Source of the DNA: Dehalococcoidia bacterium
GTDB taxonomy: Bacteria; Chloroflexota; Dehalococcoidia; Lucifugimonadales; UBA3495
Reading direction: 5' to 3'
Assembly: GCA_030740155.1 (NCBI GenBank)
Contig: JASLXV010000038.1
Span: 64,001 to 128,000, forward strand
Length of the DNA stretch: 64,000 bases
The translations under genes and the position numbers were made by a program. Below are positions 35,740-44,698 of this stretch, in pieces (within the stretch, counting starts at the first letter, position 1; every line of letters begins with the position of its first letter). Below the pieces are notes generated by a model. That model made no database searches. It was not told the DNA's origin and saw only the letters and a list, made by a program, of their open reading frames with translations.

Positions 35740-36867
35740 ATGAAGAGAGTTACTGAGGTCGCCATCGTGGGCGGTGGAGCCGCGGGGTGCTCCGTCGCTT
35801 ATCACCTGGCCAAAGCCGGCATCAAGTCGACCATCATCGAGCGGGAGGGCATTGCCTCCCAGGCCTCCGGGTTCTCGGCGGGCGGGCTGAATCCATTGCA
35901 GGGCGCCGGCATTCCGGGGCCCCTCGGTCCCTTCGCCATGGAGTCTTTCCTGATGCATCTCGAGATGTTTGGGGAGCTTCAGTCCGGGACCGGCATCAGC
36001 TACGACGGGCGGATAATATCTCTGGTGAAGGTGGCCTTCGACGAAGCCGGACTCCCTGAGCTTCAGGATACCTTCGACATCTTCACCGGCGCCGACGACG
36101 CGTTCGAGGCCCAGCTTCTGGAGCCCAAAGATGTCATGGAGTGGGACCTTCGGGTTGCCCCGGACGTCATTCGTGGAGTCCACGCCCGGGGCAACGCCGC
36201 CTTGGACAGTTACAAGTACACGCTGGCCCTGGTCCAGGCCGGTGAGAAGCTGGGGGTCACCGTTCGTTCCGGGACGGTGCGCGGGTTGGAGCGCACCAAC
36301 GGAAGGGTGACCGGGGTGCTGCTGGGAGAGGGAGTGCTTTCTTGCGACGCGGTGGTCGTCGCCATGGGACCCTGGTCCCGGGAAGCGGAGGCGTGGCTGG
36401 ACACCACTATTCCGGTGGACCCCTTGAAAGGTGAGATTCTCCGCGTCGAGCTACCCGATCGGCGTCTTTCTCCCGACCTCTCCGGCGCCGCGGGCTCCTT
36501 CCACCCGAAGCCCGACGGCCAGGTGTTCTGCGGCAGCACCGAGGCGTGGCAGGGCTTCGACCGGGAACCCAGCGACGCGGCGCGCCAGAACATCACCACC
36601 GACTCGGTCAGGCTGATGCCGGACATGGCTCAGGCGCGGTTGGTTCTGCACACCGCCTGTCTCCGGCCGGTGACCGCCGACTGGCTGCCCATTATCGGGC
36701 TGGCTCCTGGTCACGAGAACGTGTACCTGGCGACGGGCGCGGGCAAGAAGGGAGTCTTGTTGAGTCCCGGGATTGGGAAGGCAGTAGCCGATCTAATCTC
36801 CCACGGCGAGACGCCGCTTTCCATCGGTCCCTTCGACCCGCAGCGATTCGTCGGGACCGGAGACTAG
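35740..36867 (+). CDS. FAD-dependent oxidoreductase (glycine oxidase/DAO family)
   Basis: IVGGGAAG, ASGFSAG, PLKGEI, LRPVTADWLPIIG, ATG...GVLLSP. Confidence 0.88.
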   Translation: MKRVTEVAIVGGGAAGCSVAYHLAKAGIKSTIIEREGIASQASGFSAGGLNPLQGAGIPGPLGPFAMESFLMHLEMFGELQSGTGISYDGRIISLVKVAFDEAGLPELQDTFDIFTGADDAFEAQLLEPKDVMEWDLRVAPDVIRGVHARGNAALDSYKYTLALVQAGEKLGVTVRSGTVRGLERTNGRVTGVLLGEGVLSCDAVVVAMGPWSREAEAWLDTTIPVDPLKGEILRVELPDRRLSPDLSGAAGSFHPKPDGQVFCGSTEAWQGFDREPSDAARQNITTDSVRLMPDMAQARLVLHTACLRPVTADWLPIIGLAPGHENVYLATGAGKKGVLLSPGIGKAVADLISHGETPLSIGPFDPQRFVGTGD

Positions 36868-36878
36868 CAGAAATACTC

Positions 36879-37856
36879 ATGATCGGCGCCAAGCAAATGA
36901 AAGCAACGATCGCCGTGACGGACACAACGGTTGAGTGCCCGGTAGAAGAGTGCTCCACAATAGTGAAACGGCAACGCAAGCAATTTAGGCGAACGCAGGA
37001 TTTTCTGTGTCCTGCTCATGAAATCTGTATTTCGCCAACGACGTTCGTGTATGGGAACGAGACGGACAATCTCCTGTGGACCGACCCTGAGGACCTGGAT
37101 CTTCTTCGCCGGCTTAATGTAGTCAAACGCGAGAGCCGCATGGAGCATGACAACAGCGAAGACGCTGTGACCTGGAACGTGTTCCGCTACCTGGAGAAGA
37201 CGGAGCAACTCTCTGACTTCCTGTCGTCCATGATCAAACGCCGAGTAGGCAACGCGGAGCTAATATACTGGTCCTACGGTCAAGAAGTAGATAGGGTGTG
37301 GCCGGAACTGAAGAAAGCCAGGAAGGAATTTGGTGAACACTCGGGACGAGGCACTGAGCCCGATTTGATCATCGTCACCGACAATGCGTTGTTCTGGGTT
37401 GAAGCAAAGCTGACCGCCTCGAACGATACTTGCCCCAGTAATCCTCAAGACAGAAAAAAGTACGAGTCAGGTGGCGACAAATGGTATGAGCAGGTATTTA
37501 GCTCCGAGTTTGAAGTGCTGGCGATCAGAGAGAAGAAATACGAGTTGATGCGCATGTGGCTCACGGGAAGCTGGGCTGCGGTGCCGTTGAATCGTCGCTT
37601 CTACTTGGTCAATCTGGTCCGGGCAGAGAGCGAGAAAGACATCGAGCCCCGCTTTGGGCCGCACCTCAAGATGGACGCAGAGAAACGCTTCCTGCGCTGG
37701 ACCTGGGAGGACGTCTACTACTTCGTCTCGAAGAATGCCCCACCAAGCCCCGAGAAGCAAAAGTTCATGACATATTTTGAAAACAAGACGATCGGATACA
37801 AGCAAGTCCGTGGTTCGGAAAGCTGGGAGCTGCAACTGGCCTTCCACCTAACTTGA
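36879..37856 (+). CDS. Hypothetical protein, PD-(D/E)XK nuclease-like with N-terminal Cys/His motif
   Basis: SEDAVTWNVF, TEPD...VEAKL; CPVEEC...CPAH; lower GC than neighbours. Confidence 0.6.
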   Translation: MIGAKQMKATIAVTDTTVECPVEECSTIVKRQRKQFRRTQDFLCPAHEICISPTTFVYGNETDNLLWTDPEDLDLLRRLNVVKRESRMEHDNSEDAVTWNVFRYLEKTEQLSDFLSSMIKRRVGNAELIYWSYGQEVDRVWPELKKARKEFGEHSGRGTEPDLIIVTDNALFWVEAKLTASNDTCPSNPQDRKKYESGGDKWYEQVFSSEFEVLAIREKKYELMRMWLTGSWAAVPLNRRFYLVNLVRAESEKDIEPRFGPHLKMDAEKRFLRWTWEDVYYFVSKNAPPSPEKQKFMTYFENKTIGYKQVRGSESWELQLAFHLT

Positions 37857-38430: not shown

Positions 38431-38481
38431 GTGAGCGGCCTCCTTTGGAATAGTTGGATAGGCCCTAGTAAGGAGCAACGG

Positions 38482-40845
38482 ATGGTGAGCAAGGTAGAAA
38501 CTGAGCAAACGGCGGCGGGAGCGCTGCGGGGAGTCCGGGTGTTAGATTTCGGCCATTACATTCCCGGCCCCTTGCTGGGCATGCTGTTGTCCGACCAAGG
38601 GGCCGACGTCATCAAGGTGGAGCGGCCCGAAGGAGACCCGGCGCGGCGTCACGCGGCGTTCTCCACCTGGAACCGGGGGAAGCGCTCCGTAGTCCTCGAC
38701 CTGAAGTCCGAGGAGGGCCGGCGCCACGCCCAGGCCCTGGCCGGGAACGCCGATGTCTTGATCGAGAATTTTCGGCCCGGAGTGGCCGACCGCCTGGGCA
38801 TCGGCTACGGCACGTTGTCGCAGGCGAATCCGGCTCTGATCTACTGTTCCTTGCCGGGCTTCGGCGAGGAGAGTCCCTATCGTGATCAGCGAGGCTGGGA
38901 GTCCATTGTGGGCGCGGCGACCGGGATTCACCGGGCCGCCCGTGGCCTGGACGAGCCGTTGTTCGTACCCCTCCCCTTCACCAGCACCTTCGCCGCCATC
39001 ATCGGCGCGGTTTCCGTGGGAATGGCCCTCTGTGCCCGGCAGCGTACCGGCGAGGGCCAGCGGATCGAGGTCCCGCTTCACAGCGCCATGTTCACGGGGA
39101 TCGGCCGGTATATGGTCAAGATGCACGACATGGACGTCGAGTACCCCTTCGAGTTGCCCCGGCGGACCATGGTCAAGCAGTACCGGTGCTCCGACGGCCG
39201 GTTCATCCAGCTTCAGGGAATGTACGAGCGGTTCCCCAGGCGGTTTTTGACCGCCGCCGGACACCCAGAGTGGGTCGAGGAATTCGTGGCCGGCTTCGGC
39301 GAGCAGGTGGACAACCAGACTGTAAACATGTGGCGGGAGCGGTTCAGGAACATCTTCCTGCAGCGGACGGCTGAAGAGTGGGAGACCGCCCTCGCCGATG
39401 CTGGGGGCGCTGGCTCGCTTTGCCGGTCCGTTGACGAGTGGCTGGTCCACGAGCAGGCCATTGCCGCCGGCATGGTGGCCGAGGTTGACGACAGCCGGTT
39501 TGGCCTCATGAAACAGCCGGGGATACCCATGAAACTCCGGGGCACCCCCGGGGCGATTCAAGGCCGGGCGCCGCGGCTGGGGGAGCACACCGAACAGGTT
39601 TTGGGGCAGTTGGACGCTGCCGCCAGTTCGGCGTCCACTCCCGCGAGAGCCGGCGGACCCCAATCCGCGGCGCCGGTGGAAGACGTGATGGGCGCCCTAC
39701 AGGGGGTGCGCGTCCTGGACCTGTGTATCGTCCTGGCCGGGCCGGCTTGCGGCCGCACCCTAGGAGAGTTTGGCGCCGACGTGATCAAGATCAACGACGC
39801 CTCCCGGCCCGTCGACATGGAGGGCTCGCTGGACGTAAACCGGTGCAAACGCTCCATTCTGCTGAACTTGAAGACGGAGGAAGGCCAGGAGGTGTTCTGG
39901 CGGCTGGTGGAAAAAACCGACGTCATCGTGGAGAACAACCGGAAGGGCAGCTTGGCCCGGCTGGGGCTGGGCTATGAGGACGTCAAAAAGAGGAAGCCTG
40001 ACATCATCTACGCCTCGTTGAACACCTACGGTTACGACGGTCCCTGGAGCGAGCGGCCCGGCTGGGAGCAGATGGCCCAGGCGGTCACCGGGATCGAGGT
40101 CCGCCGGGGCGGCCGGGACGGGATGCCGCTGATGTTCCACTACCCGGTGAACGACTACGGCACCGGGCTGCTGGGAGCCTACGCGGTGGCCCTGGCTCTC
40201 CTCGAACGGAACCGCACCGGCGAAGGGCAGTCGGTCGACTGCGGACTGGCGCTGACCGCCTGCCTGCTCCAGTCACCCTACTTCCTGGACTACGCCGGCT
40301 TCCAACGCGACGAACCGGAAGGCCTGGGAGTCCGAGGGTATTCGGCGCTATCCAGACTGTACCCCGCCGCTGATGCCTGGCTATATTTGCATTGCCCCGA
40401 GGAGGCCGGCTGGCGAAATTTGACCGCCCTGCCCGAGTTCGCGGCGCTGGCCGCGGACCCTCGCTACGGCGCCGCCGCTTCTCGCGAGGAAAGCGATGGA
40501 GAGCTGGTGGCGGAGTTGGTCCGAATCTTTGCGCTCAAGAACCGGCGGCAGTGGGTCGGCCAGCTGAACGCGGCGGGAATCAGCGCCATCGAAAACGTGG
40601 ACATGCTTGAGCTTCGGGACGACCCTTACGTGCGGCGGGCCGGTTTGGTCCTCACGCGAGAGCATCCGGGCCGCGGCCGGGCGGACCAGGTAGGCACCAC
40701 GGCCCGCTTGTCCGGTACACCGGTACGGCTGGGGCGGGCGGCCCCCATCCTTGGCGCCGAAACCAACGAGATACTCTGGCAAGCCGGCTACACCGATGGT
40801 GAGATCGAGGCCTTGAAGTCGGCCGGGGTGGTGTCTGGGCCCTAG
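38482..40845 (+). CDS. Family III CoA-transferase (CaiB/BaiF) with two tandem domains
   Basis: Two L.GVRVLD...GP...GADVIK...NR.KRS units. Confidence 0.92.
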   Translation: MVSKVETEQTAAGALRGVRVLDFGHYIPGPLLGMLLSDQGADVIKVERPEGDPARRHAAFSTWNRGKRSVVLDLKSEEGRRHAQALAGNADVLIENFRPGVADRLGIGYGTLSQANPALIYCSLPGFGEESPYRDQRGWESIVGAATGIHRAARGLDEPLFVPLPFTSTFAAIIGAVSVGMALCARQRTGEGQRIEVPLHSAMFTGIGRYMVKMHDMDVEYPFELPRRTMVKQYRCSDGRFIQLQGMYERFPRRFLTAAGHPEWVEEFVAGFGEQVDNQTVNMWRERFRNIFLQRTAEEWETALADAGGAGSLCRSVDEWLVHEQAIAAGMVAEVDDSRFGLMKQPGIPMKLRGTPGAIQGRAPRLGEHTEQVLGQLDAAASSASTPARAGGPQSAAPVEDVMGALQGVRVLDLCIVLAGPACGRTLGEFGADVIKINDASRPVDMEGSLDVNRCKRSILLNLKTEEGQEVFWRLVEKTDVIVENNRKGSLARLGLGYEDVKKRKPDIIYASLNTYGYDGPWSERPGWEQMAQAVTGIEVRRGGRDGMPLMFHYPVNDYGTGLLGAYAVALALLERNRTGEGQSVDCGLALTACLLQSPYFLDYAGFQRDEPEGLGVRGYSALSRLYPAADAWLYLHCPEEAGWRNLTALPEFAALAADPRYGAAASREESDGELVAELVRIFALKNRRQWVGQLNAAGISAIENVDMLELRDDPYVRRAGLVLTREHPGRGRADQVGTTARLSGTPVRLGRAAPILGAETNEILWQAGYTDGEIEALKSAGVVSGP

Positions 40846-41138
40846 GCCGGACTAGAGTACTTCTCGGGCCATAGAGACCTCCCGGCGGCCGGCCTGCTGG
40901 GCCAGCGCCGGCGCCACTGGATTTGCCGCTGGCGAAATCGCGGCGCTGCTGGGGAGAGGGGCACGGTGCGTAGCCGGAGGCCCCGGCAATTGGCGATGCG
41001 TTCCCCCGCGTGCTAAACTGCTATTATCGGTTCCAAATAGACTTCGGATTGCCTAAGACCCCCATCCTCGCCTTCTCCCCCCTCACGAATGAGGAGAGTT
41101 AGAATGGGGGTTCACTCGTATATACCCGTCGGATAAGG

Positions 41139-43349
41139 GTGAGCCGGTTGCTTCGCATCTACAACACCCTGACCAAACAGGTCGAAGAGGTCCGGTCGAT
41201 TGAACCGGGCCTTGTCCGCATGTACACCTGCGGTCCGACCGTCTACCGTGACGCTCACATCGGCAACCTTCGCACCTACATGATGGCTGACTGGGTCCGC
41301 CGCGTCATCGAGGCCGGGGGCCGGGAAGTGTTCCACATCAAGAACATTACCGACGTGGGCCACATGCGTCAGGAGTTGGTGGAGACAGGCGGCGACAAGA
41401 TGATCTTGGCCGCCCTGAGCGAAGGCAAGACGGTTCAGGACATAGCTCAGTTCTACGCCGGCCGCTTCTTCCGCGACGAGGCCCGGATCAACATCCTCCC
41501 CGCCCACGTATTCCCCTGGGCGACCCAGCACATCCCGGAGATGGTGTCCATCGTGGGCCGGCTCCTGGCGAGCGGCCATGCCTACCATGCGGGCGGCAAC
41601 ATCTACTTCGACGTGGGACGTTTCAATGGCTACGGCAAGCTCTCCCGCAACACTGGGGCCGACCTGTTGGAAGGGGTGAGGGCGGAAGCGGACCCATTGA
41701 AACACGACCCCCGGGATTTCACTCTGTGGAAGGCCGCTGAGCCGGGCCGGGACTTGAAGTGGGCCAGCCCTTGGGGTGAAGGGTTCCCCGGCTGGCACAT
41801 CGAATGCTCCGCCATGGCTTCCAAGTACCTGGGGGAAACCTTCGACATCCACACCGGCGGCGTGGACAACATCTTTCCCCACCACGAAGACGAGATTGCC
41901 CAGAGCGAGGCCGCCTTCGGGCGGCAGCACGTGCGATATTGGATCCACGCCCAGCACCTCTTGGCCGACGGCGCCAAGATGGCCAAATCCTCGGGCAACG
42001 TCTTCTTGCTGGAGGATCTGATAGCCCGCGGTTTCGACCCGCTTGCTTTCCGCTACCTCTGCATGACCGTCCGCTATCGCCACCGGATGAACTTCACTTT
42101 CACCTCTCTCAAGGCCGCCGAAAGAGCCCTCACCAACCTGCGACACCGGGTCTGGGTATGGAATGACCTGCCCCCCCTGGCTGAGCTGCCCGCTGAGGCC
42201 GGAGAGTGGCGGAGCCGGTTCTGGACCAGGGTGGAAGACGACCTGGATCTGCCGGGAGCGTTGGCCCTGACCTGGGACATGATGCGTTCCGGCCTGCCCG
42301 ATCCAGTCAAACTGGCCTTGCTTCTCGAATTTGACCGCATCTTTTGCCTGGACCTGGACAAAGTGCCGGCGGCCTATCCGCTTCCCGAGTCGATCTCGGC
42401 CGCCGCCGGGAAACGCGCGGCACTCCGAGAGCACGCCGACTATGGCTCCGCGGACACCGTCCGCACCCAAATGGCCTCCGAGGGTTACTCGGTCGAAGAT
42501 ACCCGGGAAACCGTCCGCATCCGGCCGAAGACGGCAATGGAACGGCAACGGGAACGGTGGCAGTCCTTCTCCTCCTCGCGGGAGGTGGAGTCCTTCCTGG
42601 GGCGCTCCCCGGAATACGACTTCACCTTCGTTCTCAACGCCTATGGTTACCGTGATGACATCGAGCGGTGCGTCCGCAGCATGACCCGGTTCGGCGAAGG
42701 CTTCTCCACGGAGATTGTCCTCATCGACAACGGTTCTATTGACGGGACCGGTGAATGGCTGGAGGAGTATCAGGCCGGCCGGCCGTCGGTGCGGGTGGTC
42801 CATTGCGACCACCCCCTCGGCGACGCCGCCGGCAAGAACATCGGGTTGAAGCAGAGCCTGGGGGCAAATGTCATCATCCTGGACCCTTCAGCGGAGATCT
42901 TGGGCAACATCCTGGGGCCCATCGCACGGCAGCTGGCGGATGGCTCGGTGGGCATAGTTGGCCCCTACGGGCTGAGCACCAACGATCTGCGGCACTTCCA
43001 TGAGGATGCGGAGAACGGAGAGGCGGATGCCATGCAGGCCTATTGCATGGCGTTCCGGCGGGAGACGGTGAACACCGTCGGGCTGATGCGGGAATGCTTC
43101 CGTTTCTATCGCAATCTGGATATCGACTACTGCTTCCAGTTCAAGGATAAAGGGTACCGTATCCTCGCCGACAGCACGTTGCCAATGGTCCGCCACGAGC
43201 ACCGGCAATGGACCGAGCTGGAAGAAAACCAGAGGGACGAGCTGAGCCGCAAGAATTTCGGACGCTTCCTCAAGCGTTGGGGCAACCGGCCGGACCTCCT
43301 CGTCAGCCCCGGCGGCCAAGGCGTGGGCGACACCTTTTCCCATCACTGA
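41139..43349 (+). CDS. cysS: Cysteine--tRNA ligase fused to a C-terminal GT2 (GT-A) glycosyltransferase-like domain
   Basis: CGPTVY..AHIGN, PGWHIECSAM, HTGGVD..FPHHEDE, KMAKS, anticodon-type helix; then IDNGSIDGT, N.GL, ILD, FRFYRNLDID. Confidence 0.9.
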   Translation: MSRLLRIYNTLTKQVEEVRSIEPGLVRMYTCGPTVYRDAHIGNLRTYMMADWVRRVIEAGGREVFHIKNITDVGHMRQELVETGGDKMILAALSEGKTVQDIAQFYAGRFFRDEARINILPAHVFPWATQHIPEMVSIVGRLLASGHAYHAGGNIYFDVGRFNGYGKLSRNTGADLLEGVRAEADPLKHDPRDFTLWKAAEPGRDLKWASPWGEGFPGWHIECSAMASKYLGETFDIHTGGVDNIFPHHEDEIAQSEAAFGRQHVRYWIHAQHLLADGAKMAKSSGNVFLLEDLIARGFDPLAFRYLCMTVRYRHRMNFTFTSLKAAERALTNLRHRVWVWNDLPPLAELPAEAGEWRSRFWTRVEDDLDLPGALALTWDMMRSGLPDPVKLALLLEFDRIFCLDLDKVPAAYPLPESISAAAGKRAALREHADYGSADTVRTQMASEGYSVEDTRETVRIRPKTAMERQRERWQSFSSSREVESFLGRSPEYDFTFVLNAYGYRDDIERCVRSMTRFGEGFSTEIVLIDNGSIDGTGEWLEEYQAGRPSVRVVHCDHPLGDAAGKNIGLKQSLGANVIILDPSAEILGNILGPIARQLADGSVGIVGPYGLSTNDLRHFHEDAENGEADAMQAYCMAFRRETVNTVGLMRECFRFYRNLDIDYCFQFKDKGYRILADSTLPMVRHEHRQWTELEENQRDELSRKNFGRFLKRWGNRPDLLVSPGGQGVGDTFSHH

Positions 43350-43717
43350 AGGCGGCTCGGCGACGGATTTTTTCGGCGCCGGGGTAGGGGCCAGGCACAG
43401 GAATGTGATCCTCCGGTTATCCGATTTGCCCTCTCCCGCTTCGGCGCCCAACTGTTTTTACCGGACATAACGAGTTTTCAGTGAATCATCGTTCGGCGAA
43501 GTGCCAATATATCCCGCTGAAGAATAGCTCGAATCCCGCACGCCCGGTGCAGATTGGCGCAACACTGCATATTGCCTTCACAAACTGTTCACGTAGTTTT
43601 TACAAAGTGGGGCACCGGCCGGGTCTCTTGACGGGCCTGACCGGGGATGCTAGAGTCCAAAAGGCCCGGTCGGTTGCTCTTTTCAGACCGCATCCCCTGA
43701 CCTGGAGTCCCTACCAG

Positions 43718-44698
43718 ATGGAGGAAGCTGCCCAGCGGTTGTTGGCGGGGGACCAGCGCATCCTCTCCCGGCTGATCTCTCTCCTCGAACGGGGCGATCC
43801 GCGAGCCGCCGACGTATTGAAGGCCATAGATTCTCGCACTGGCCGAGCCTATACCGTCGGCATTACCGGACCGCCCGGCGCCGGAAAGAGCACCATCGTA
43901 GACCGGCTTACCGAACTGTTGCGCGGTCAAGGACTGACCGTAGGCATCGTTGGGGTCGACCCCAGCAGCCCATTTAGTGGCGGCGCCTTGCTCGGAGACC
44001 GGGTTCGGATGCAGCGTCACTATCTGGACTCGGGGGTTTTCATCCGTAGTGTGGCGACTCGCGGACACTCTGGGGGGCTGTCCCGGATCGTCAAAGGCAT
44101 TGTCCGGCTTCTGGATGCCGCCGGCACGGACATTATCCTGGTGGAAACCGTGGGCGTCGGCCAGACCGAATTGGGTATCGTCGGAGTCGCGGATACGATC
44201 TTGCTGACCTTGATGCCCGAATCAGGAGACGCCATTCAGGCCCTTAAAGCGGGAGTCATGGAAGTGGCGGACGTCTTTCTGGTCAACAAGGCGGACCGGG
44301 AGGGTGCGGACCATATGGCGGCGGCCATTAATGGGATGGTCCAGATGGTCGATACCCACTCCGGCTGGACTCCTCCAGTGGTGTTGACCACCGCCCGGTC
44401 GGGCCAGGGCATCGAAGAGTTGTGGAACAAGATCCAGGCCCATCGAGAGGTACTTACGGCTACGTCCGAGTTGGCCAGGCGCCGCGGGGCTCACCGGCGA
44501 CGGGAATTCCTGGAGACAGTGCAAGAAGAGTTGGAACGGCGGCTTAAGGCACTTGTTGAAAACGATCCGGTTATGGAGGCCACTTTGGAGAAGGTGGCGA
44601 ACCGGGAAGCAGAGCCGTACTCGTCGGCCATGGAATTCCTGAACTCTTCGCAACTGCCGCCGGAGTGGCTCGCCACTCTGCCGGTCAAGCAGGATTAG
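43718..44698 (+). CDS. meaB: Methylmalonyl-CoA mutase-associated GTPase MeaB
   Basis: GITGPPGAGKST, VDPSSPFSGGALLGDRVRM, ETVGVGQ, VNKAD. Confidence 0.94.
   Translation: MEEAAQRLLAGDQRILSRLISLLERGDPRAADVLKAIDSRTGRAYTVGITGPPGAGKSTIVDRLTELLRGQGLTVGIVGVDPSSPFSGGALLGDRVRMQRHYLDSGVFIRSVATRGHSGGLSRIVKGIVRLLDAAGTDIILVETVGVGQTELGIVGVADTILLTLMPESGDAIQALKAGVMEVADVFLVNKADREGADHMAAAINGMVQMVDTHSGWTPPVVLTTARSGQGIEELWNKIQAHREVLTATSELARRRGAHRRREFLETVQEELERRLKALVENDPVMEATLEKVANREAEPYSSAMEFLNSSQLPPEWLATLPVKQD

Follow-up and report, generated by a model that had tools for sequence, protein, structure and literature searches.

A second cysteinyl-tRNA synthetase fused to a GT-A glycosyltransferase in Dehalococcoidia, possibly directed at tRNA-Cys

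What might a cysteinyl-tRNA synthetase (CysRS) do with a glycosyltransferase (GT) attached to its C-terminus? The question is raised by a gene at 41139..43349 of a 64,000-nucleotide stretch of DNA (the window) that covers positions 64,001 to 128,000 of contig JASLXV010000038.1, from the genome assembly GCA_030740155.1 of a marine Dehalococcoidia bacterium (SAR202). A preliminary description of this gene, made from the letters alone, had offered two readings: synthesis of a new thiol or cysteinylated glycan in the manner of the mycothiol ligase MshC, or modification of tRNA or Cys-tRNA by the GT domain. We find that the fused protein is an extra CysRS paralog, and that its evolutionarily conserved part is the CysS_C anticodon-binding domain together with the GT2 domain. 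We give a probability of about one half to the reading in which a dedicated second CysRS is joined to a tRNA-Cys-directed GT-A glycosyltransferase.

Full-text literature searches found no published study of a CysRS-GT fusion or of CysS_C-GT2 proteins, in agreement with the earlier remark that no such enzyme had been characterised. The matching passages of PMC8762117 hold nothing on a CysRS-GT fusion. In databases the proteins go by the names "cysteine--tRNA ligase", "cysteinyl-tRNA synthetase" or "glycosyltransferase".

Architecture of the fused protein

The gene is a single open frame on the forward strand, 736 codons long when counted from a GTG. Its start is probably the TTG at 41148, because a Shine-Dalgarno-like AAGGG (41135-41139) lies 8 nt upstream of that codon, the N-terminal consensus of 61 fused homologues is MLRIYNTLTK and the homologues are mostly 733 aa long. 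The protein can be divided as follows.

41139..43349, forward strand: maximal open reading frame of the fused CysRS-GT2 gene, counted from GTG up to and including the stop (736 aa)
41148..43349, forward strand: the coding sequence that is probably used, 733 aa with a TTG start codon, from the upstream AAGGG and the consensus N-terminus and length of homologues
41193..42122, forward strand: CysRS catalytic Rossmann domain, residues 19-328, from Pfam tRNA-synt_1e (PF01406, E 1.3e-94) and VIA Z 46-48 to solved CysRS
Within this catalytic domain, forward strand: the sequence motifs CGPT (C31), HIGN (40-43), WHIEC (C223), HHEDE (248-252) and KMAKS (280-284)
42123..42386, forward strand: helical stem-contact/DALR-like CysRS region, residues 329-416, from TIGR00435 coverage 1-459, model helices 321-402 and the Foldseek match to 1u0b_B
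42387..42533, forward strand: CysS_C anticodon-binding domain, residues 417-465 (R426, R430, Y435, D439), from alignment via a stand-alone relative
42534..42614, forward strand: structured linker, residues 466-492, with a helix at 466-473 and a conserved SSSREVES, from the model and alignment
42615..43313, forward strand: GT2/GT-A domain, residues 493-725, from Pfam PF00535, the module model, VIA Z and conservation
Marks within the GT2 domain: DNGS (530-533), D582-P-S584-x-E586 at the place of DxD, HFHE, D661 in RNLDID, H686-E-H688 and a basic C-terminal helix

The linker residue S478 is kept in at least 90% of the 61 fused homologues, and the GC content across the domain junction is even (0.62-0.64).

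The synthetase half looks fully competent, judged by its sequence and its predicted structure. The window protein passes the cut-off of the NCBIfam cysS equivalog TIGR00435 as a whole protein (387.3 bits, cut-off 340, model positions 1-459 of 466; 387.8 bits in the genome-wide profile search). The five catalytic-domain motifs are conserved across 17 aligned fused homologues; among the 61, residues C31, C223, H248, H249, E250, K280 and M281 are invariant and E252 and HIGN are each at least 90% conserved. The AlphaFold2 model of the full-length protein (mean pLDDT 88.9, pTM 0.83) finds its best Foldseek fold match in E. coli CysRS in complex with tRNA-Cys (1u0b_B, TM on target 0.85, 492 columns), with an alignment that spans the entire E. 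coli enzyme. The Asn of HIGN is not a defect, because HIGN or HLGN together with an 11-residue GH-containing insertion after NITD is common to the CysRS structures solved from Borrelia (3sp1) and Elizabethkingia (6ujd), and HIGN with the GH insertion also occurs in the full-length unfused CysRS of two Chloroflexota families (f58 and f47). To judge from these features, the CysRS half retains everything required for cysteine activation and tRNA-Cys binding.

In a tree of 29 CysRS-family domains, from which three rows were left out (one for a locus already represented and two for pieces of a single frameshifted gene), the 17 fused domains form one clade with support 95/97 that draws on several families of the phylum. 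This clade adjoins the unfused f58 and f47 CysRS; the tree's other half contains the canonical cysS of the window genome together with the MshC-like genes. The fused CysRS thus appear to be one old clade.

The remainder of the protein belongs to the GT2 family by Pfam and to the GT-A class by fold. Glycos_transf_2 (PF00535) matches residues 498-609 (E 1.5e-13; 51.4 bits, cut-off 23.3), and the full-length model shows a GT-A fold at residues 492-736, with VIA Z 20.5 to PcManGT (6yv7), 19.9 to K4CP and 18.2 to SpsA. A separate model of the CysS_C + GT2 module gives Z 20.6 to PcManGT 6yv7, 20.2 to GalNAc-T1 8v9q, 19.6 to K4CP, 19.3 to WrtF and 18.5 to SpsA 1h7l; identity to the nearest solved GT structures is 14-18%. 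The solved GT2 enzymes PcManGT, GalNAc-T1, K4CP and SpsA thus share its GT-A fold (Z 18-21 over about 205-235 residues), whereas the window GT differs from them in its D-x-S-x-E, in a basic C-terminal helix peculiar to its family and in the CysS_C domain at its N-terminal side. D661 (in RNLD-x-D) and N706 are invariant, E586 and H686 are conserved at 93% and 97%, and the basic residues R699, R704, K705, R709, R713 and R717 of the C-terminal helix are conserved as well. By their position, D582-P-S584, E586, D661 and H686 are candidates for the residues of the usual GT-A motif scheme, which comprises the DxD that binds metal and nucleotide-sugar, a catalytic acid at the xED position and a C-terminal His. 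The domain looks catalytic in sequence and model, and is predicted to be an active transferase with an unusual metal site.

Most of what the preliminary description had read from the letters held up. Its uninterrupted 736-aa reading frame is indeed open throughout, if probably three codons shorter; a complete CysRS followed by a GT domain was recovered by Pfam, TIGR00435 and the AlphaFold2 model; and the motifs it had named are all there, on the CysRS side (HIGN, KMAKS, CGPT, WHIEC, HHEDE) and on the GT side (IDNGSIDGT, DPS, FYRNLDID). The profile scan it had suggested matched both tRNA-synt_1e and Glycos_transf_2, and the structure prediction, likewise its suggestion, agrees with the GT-A fold it had named.

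The fusion is an extra copy beside a canonical cysS

The fusion is always an extra CysRS paralog and not the housekeeping enzyme. The plain second cysS that the preliminary description had proposed to look for exists in the window genome (502 bits), on contig C32, where it directly adjoins ispF/ispD; the fused gene is therefore not the cell's sole housekeeping CysRS. A canonical cysS is also present in 31 of 33 relatives that carry the fusion, and the two relatives that have the fusion without it are 85% and 89% complete. MAG (metagenome-assembled genome) contamination does not explain the gene pair, because the canonical and fused genes lie on one closed chromosome in G002, G006, G010, G018 and G024. 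Five genomes of other families (G151, G205, G327, G265, G313) have three members each, one canonical, one fused and one truncated to about 410 aa.

A database search with the GT part alone returned 948 proteins among 3228 candidates. Among the best 120 of these 948 matches, 112 are 657-754 aa long and carry both PF01406 and PF00535, with GT domains 69-88% identical to that of the window protein; the shorter matches at high identity are for the most part fragments cut off by a contig end. Of 41 related genomes, 33 give a strong GT match (E <= 1.5e-57), several of them single-contig genomes; each match lies within an open frame of 734-801 aa and has no stops in the matched GT part. In contigs representing one genome per species, 404 stretches encode a relative, the named records being Dehalococcoidia/SAR202-cluster MAGs, and the frame is fused in 79 of 80 named Dehalococcoidia/SAR202 loci. 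The fusion also occurs in other Chloroflexota classes and in closed chromosomes. The survey of architectures that had been suggested revealed both fused and stand-alone forms across Chloroflexota.

These counts bear on the possibility that an assembly or gene-calling error joined two separate genes, which we regard as extremely improbable. In its favour, the genome is a MAG of 108 contigs with an estimated contamination of 7.65%, and 42416-42717 lacks cover by any RNA-library contig. Such contigs come from three studies; they are short, match both halves with 0-1 differences (5 in one piece) and are silent on strand and level, and DNA may be present in them. Against it stand the fused frames of the 33 relatives, single-contig genomes included, the 112 two-domain matches, the 79 fused loci and the even GC over the junction. 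A misassembly or a one-off is ruled out by these comparative data and the even junction GC. Two doubts that the preliminary description had raised about itself, that the fusion might be such a one-off and that its GT domain might be unconserved in homologues, are both dispelled: the fusion is conserved in relatives and the GT domain strongly so.

CysS_C and GT2 form the conserved module

When 1.84 billion representative proteins were searched with the GT part, 93 of them matched at E <= 1e-30. These include proteins of only about 300-345 aa, several of which begin with the C-terminal motif of CysRS. Such stand-alone proteins match Pfam CysS_C (PF23493, cut-off 23 bits) with 28.2 bits at locus L108, 26.7 at L111 and 34.5 at L118, and residues 9-54 of the L118 protein align gap-free to residues 414-459 of E. 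coli CysRS. The window's own CysS_C, which gives no Pfam match at E 0.1, was aligned by motif and fold; the window protein matches the module profile from profile position 4, and the same profile also matches the C-termini of solved CysRS structures. In the ESM Atlas, clusters of about 300 aa from Chloroflexota and Actinomycetota carry PF00535 and PF23493 in 60-84% of their members and are named automatically for both domains.

Across 401 sampled Chloroflexota genomes, the module profile matches 192 at E <= 1e-15 and 104 (about a quarter) at E <= 3.3e-39, the next genome standing at 1.3e-32. The open frames fall into two sizes, 720-926 aa where fused and about 296-460 aa where stand-alone, and nearly all matches begin at profile positions 2-8, i.e. 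within CysS_C. Fused and stand-alone copies occur together in, for example, G265, G377 and G369. The tallies for the module and for family f69 include unpublished genomes (G078, G267, G384; G185, G213, G312), on which no individual claim depends. The AlphaFold2 model of the module reaches pLDDT 95.1 and pTM 0.90, so that CysS_C and GT2 are confidently predicted to fold as one unit.

The distribution of CysRS genes around the module suggests that it does not require a CysRS of its own. When three candidates were scored per genome, 13 of the 22 module-bearing f69 genomes had one CysRS-family match at E <= 1e-50, three had none and six had two. Where a second CysRS copy is present, it is convergent to the module; it is truncated in G421 and has its own CysS_C in G325. 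CysS_C is thus found on both halves in G325, and fission products retain it on the GT half. In G178 and G273 the stand-alone module is linked neither to the full-length CysRS gene nor to the MshC-like gene, which are themselves unlinked. From these patterns of fusion, fission and neighbourhood, the CysRS paralog and the module are linked, with the module as the constant part. The evolutionarily conserved unit is the CysS_C anticodon-binding domain plus GT2, and not the whole CysRS plus GT. The stand-alone modules that one source names "cysteinyl-tRNA synthetase" are not synthetases.

Several other arrangements came to light. At L125 6777-8954 (G389) the module occupies residues 409-725 of a 726-aa protein, the N-terminal ~400 aa of which have no Pfam match and no detectable similarity to the CysRS domain. 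The ESM Atlas also holds proteins of 53-83 aa that consist of CysS_C alone, some clusters being commonest in tailed phages (scores 0.87, a lead only). In f58 the stand-alone module lies in a same-strand cluster (L108, L109, L119, L120, L127) with PepF, an oligoendopeptidase F, and a ManC-like nucleotidyltransferase among its genes. In f69 a DinB_2/MST gene lies upstream of the module in two genera (L114, L115), and in L114 a convergent truncated CysRS-like gene adjoins.

The anticodon-reading residues are kept

According to PMC12684709, which cites Hauenstein et al. 2004, E. coli CysRS reads G34 of tRNA-Cys through hydrogen bonds from Arg427 and Asp436, stacking by Trp432 and a water network with Arg423. 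The gap-free L118 alignment pairs E. coli R423 with R426 of the window protein, R427 with R430, W432 with Y435 and D436 with D439. We counted these positions in the 61 fused proteins and in the non-gap rows of a 59-row module alignment, mostly of stand-alone proteins.

R426: R in 59/60 fused, R in 48/49 of the module alignment
R430: R in 59/60 fused, R in 46/47 of the module alignment
Y435: aromatic in 59/60 fused, aromatic in 44/47 of the module alignment
D439: D in 60/60 fused, D in 46/46 of the module alignment

The four positions are thus kept at 94-100% over fused and stand-alone forms, and the fused protein also counts as a CysRS by its anticodon-binding domain with the G34 readers.

Scanning the window genome (G000) with aragorn gave 49 tRNAs, including one tRNA-Cys(GCA) and one tRNA-SeC(TCA). 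The latter lies at G000:C96:86-182, and because of it the organism probably uses selenocysteine. Partial 3'-half copies of tRNA-Cys lie about 400 bp from the intact gene in two relatives (G006:C1:161087-161138, 100%; G029:C5:124830-124876, 90%). A sugar placed on hydroxylated i6A37 gained no support as a candidate modification, MiaE not being found in the window genome (93.7% complete), which has MiaA.

A candidate tRNA-Cys-directed glycosyltransferase

Because the CysRS anticodon grip is kept even in stand-alone relatives, the GT probably acts on tRNA-Cys. CysS_C would dock the enzyme on the tRNA-Cys anticodon, and the GT domain, with a nucleotide-sugar as donor, would then glycosylate an acceptor on the docked tRNA. 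In the fusion, the CysRS body may hold, supply and charge the same tRNA, following the logic of LysX versus stand-alone MprF. In those systems a Lys-tRNA-dependent transferase works alone with the housekeeping synthetase or is fused to an extra LysRS. The likeness is one of logic only, a tRNA-using enzyme either alone or fused to an extra synthetase; their transferase is of GNAT/DUF2156 type with a membrane domain, whereas that of the window is a soluble GT-A. Pfam found only the tRNA-synt_1e and GT2 families in the window protein, and no DUF2156/GNAT domain.

The anticodon and the CCA end of a tRNA lie about 70-75 Å apart. The anticodon arm is the most likely acceptor, because a stand-alone GT of about 310 aa would hardly reach a CCA end some 70 Å away; a 250-aa GT held within about 30 residues of the anticodon-binding domain, in a monomeric stand-alone enzyme, would reach the anticodon arm only. 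We therefore tentatively propose a nucleoside or ribose of this arm. The cysteinyl moiety of Cys-tRNA, modified for example by S-glycosylation, is a distinctly weaker candidate, which the fused form or an oligomer might reach.

Two further systems offer partial precedents. GluQRS/YadB is a class I synthetase paralog that makes a modified tRNA and is a fold neighbour at the class I level (4a91, Z 17.4), but its anticodon-binding domain has been lost and what it attaches to a base is an amino acid, whereas the window synthetase is complete and carries a GT. The eukaryotic enzymes QTGAL/B3GNTL1 and QTMAN/GTDC1 glycosylate queuosine in tRNAs with GUN anticodons. They provide a glycosyltransferase precedent on an anticodon-loop nucleoside of specific tRNAs, but differ in being eukaryotic and in lacking an anticodon-binding domain taken from a synthetase. 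With its GCA anticodon, tRNA-Cys is not among the queuosine tRNAs.

A number of observations weigh against a tRNA acceptor. The GT domain has D582-P-S584 where DxD is expected. The module is net acidic (K+R 40, D+E 49 in that of the window), which is unusual in RNA-binding proteins. No dedicated second tRNA-Cys was found among the 49 tRNAs of the window genome; tRNA-Cys is 92-100% identical over 37 relatives, including those that lack the fusion, and 100% identical in G019, which has no GT match. Among these relatives no tRNA-Cys feature tracks the fusion gene. The reach argument is drawn from general tRNA and domain sizes and could be voided by an oligomer, and CysS_C could be retained for structural or sensing reasons. 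We know of no GT-A enzyme that acts on bacterial tRNA. Some neighbours of the stand-alone module, described below, also point elsewhere.

Alternative explanations

The MshC-like reading, in which the protein works without tRNA, is in our view improbable, though it has real points in its favour. Here the CysRS would make Cys-AMP and ligate cysteine to an amino sugar built by the GT (with a deacetylase); a new low-molecular-weight thiol or a cysteinylated glycan would result, and CysS_C would be a structural leftover. MshC, the L-cysteine:GlcN-Ins ligase of mycothiol synthesis (TIGR03447), is a precedent, being itself a CysRS-derived extra paralog beside the housekeeping enzyme that shares the catalytic fold and couples the activation of cysteine with sugar chemistry; Z is 44.2 between the model and MshC 3c8z. 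Neighbours in other lineages fit as well, and it is these that speak against a tRNA acceptor: a DinB_2/MST-type S-transferase directly upstream of the stand-alone module (L114 7405-7911, L115 8960-9463), a cluster of ManC-like, gamma-glutamyltranspeptidase (GGT), module and PepF in L119 and L120, and GGT, module and PepF in L127. L108 and L109 have ManC-like, module and PepF without GGT; glucose-6-phosphate dehydrogenase (G6PD) lies near the module in L108, L109 and L120, and two GT4 genes do so in L114. In the window genome five PIG-L/LmbE deacetylase genes are present, glutathione synthetase (gshB) was not found and BshA stays below its cut-off (115.8 versus 273.7 bits); taken together, these thiol-pathway findings are neutral as to a new thiol. 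MshC, however, has no anticodon-binding domain and no GT fusion, whereas the window protein has both. By its score on the MshC model (214.8 bits, cut-off 485.1) and by its anticodon-binding domain, the window protein is not an MshC. Where MshC shed that domain, the fusion family keeps it with its G34 contacts, in stand-alone forms too. Many module genomes have a single CysRS-family gene, which leaves no spare ligase for such a role. Neither a deacetylase nor a thiol gene accompanies the fusion in the 80 SAR202/Dehalococcoidia loci. Truly MshC-like truncated ligases form a separate Chloroflexota lineage that coexists with the fusion (in G151 and others), whereas the window genome has the fusion and no MshC-like gene. 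Truncated CysRS paralogs of about 370-420 aa without the anticodon-binding domain were seen at L133 (G381), L134 (G178), L135 (G273), L147 (G313) and L148 (G151); for those of L133-L135 the MshC model gives 351-368 bits, under its cut-off of 485.1, and they form their own branch, and the truncated paralogs may be a mycothiol-like cysteine ligase outside Actinomycetota.

We consider it no likelier that the protein is an ordinary second CysRS whose GT domain modifies something other than tRNA, be it a protein, a small molecule or the enzyme itself. In that case CysS_C would be a leftover of fission or a tRNA-Cys sensor through which GT activity is tuned to cysteine or to charging status. Plain tRNA charging is what one would expect, because the CysRS half passes the cysS equivalog cut-off. 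The acidic module, the variation of neighbourhoods by lineage with no common partner and a tRNA-Cys that is the same with and without the gene fit this explanation too, and the Ser-rich linker SSSREVES could, speculatively, be a site of self-glycosylation. Yet a passive leftover would not be expected to keep four G34-reading surface residues at 94-100%, nor to form a confident single unit with the GT (pTM 0.90), and independent fission products retain CysS_C on the GT half, with G325 having it on both halves.

Of the two readings in the preliminary description, we thus favour a GT that acts on tRNA or Cys-tRNA, from the stand-alone CysS_C with its G34 contacts and from the many module relatives in genomes with one CysRS-family gene. 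The MshC-like thiol or cysteinylated glycan is less favoured: the protein failed the MshC model and kept its anticodon-binding domain, while the DinB/MST and GGT neighbours of other lineages still speak for it. More broadly, it is conceivable, if doubtful, that in CysS_C-GT2 proteins bacteria have a widespread, as yet undescribed class of tRNA glycosyltransferases, which dock on the GCA anticodon of tRNA-Cys and place a sugar on the anticodon arm or on tRNA-borne cysteine, with the SAR202 fusion coupling charging and glycosylation.

Gene neighbourhood and upstream region

In the 80 Dehalococcoidia/SAR202 loci the gene order is DAO (45 loci), CoA-transferase III (46), fusion (79), MeaB-like (70), DUF429 (49) and HPF (23), followed on the opposite strand by SPFH (59) and NfeD (62). 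For CoA-transferase III, the 46 loci are those counted by cluster; a blastp search with the 804-aa CoA-transferase of the window gives 70 matches. No glycan, thiol or tRNA gene is among the conserved neighbours in these loci. We read the local gene order as inherited synteny because it is not kept in other classes. The fusion and the MeaB-like gene are probably not co-translated, since the median gap between them is 418 bp in relatives.

No T-box or riboswitch was detected upstream, an Rfam search of 40700-41300 at E <= 1 giving two sub-threshold sRNA matches only. In the promoter/terminator scan a single promoter-like site came up, ahead of the MeaB-like gene (43628-43656), which is no more than expected by chance.

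Three neighbouring reading frames of the window deserve mention.

43481-44698: MeaB-like GTPase open reading frame, probably called too long, as the Pfam match begins at residue 95 and the promoter-like site lies at 43628-43656
38431-40845: 804-aa protein immediately upstream of the fusion, in which CoA-transferase family III matches two stretches (E 1.3e-185)
36546-37856: 436-aa open reading frame that overlaps the end of DAO, has no Pfam match and may not be a gene

Significance

For annotation, the fusion genes are unfit as evidence of a housekeeping cysS. The family is common: it occurs in the 104 of 401 sampled Chloroflexota genomes, among them nearly all of the window's family, and, from the Atlas clusters, in some Actinomycetota. 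SAR202 bacteria are abundant in the deep ocean.

To our knowledge, the thiol of the phylum Chloroflexota is not known, and were the thiol explanation true, the fusion would point to an unknown low-molecular-weight thiol in this phylum. The window protein is predicted to be soluble and self-contained, which makes the hypothesis testable with purified components.

If the GT does act on tRNA-Cys, its product would be the first GT-A-made sugar modification of a bacterial tRNA or aminoacyl-tRNA, and glycosylation would be a new chemical class in this area of bacterial biology. It would also reveal a new route to substrate specificity, in which the anticodon-binding domain of a synthetase is borrowed by an unrelated enzyme. 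The fusion might then join the known synthetase paralogs and fusions with non-translational roles and, a suggestion we make with some reserve, represent a new class of tRNA-modifying enzyme.

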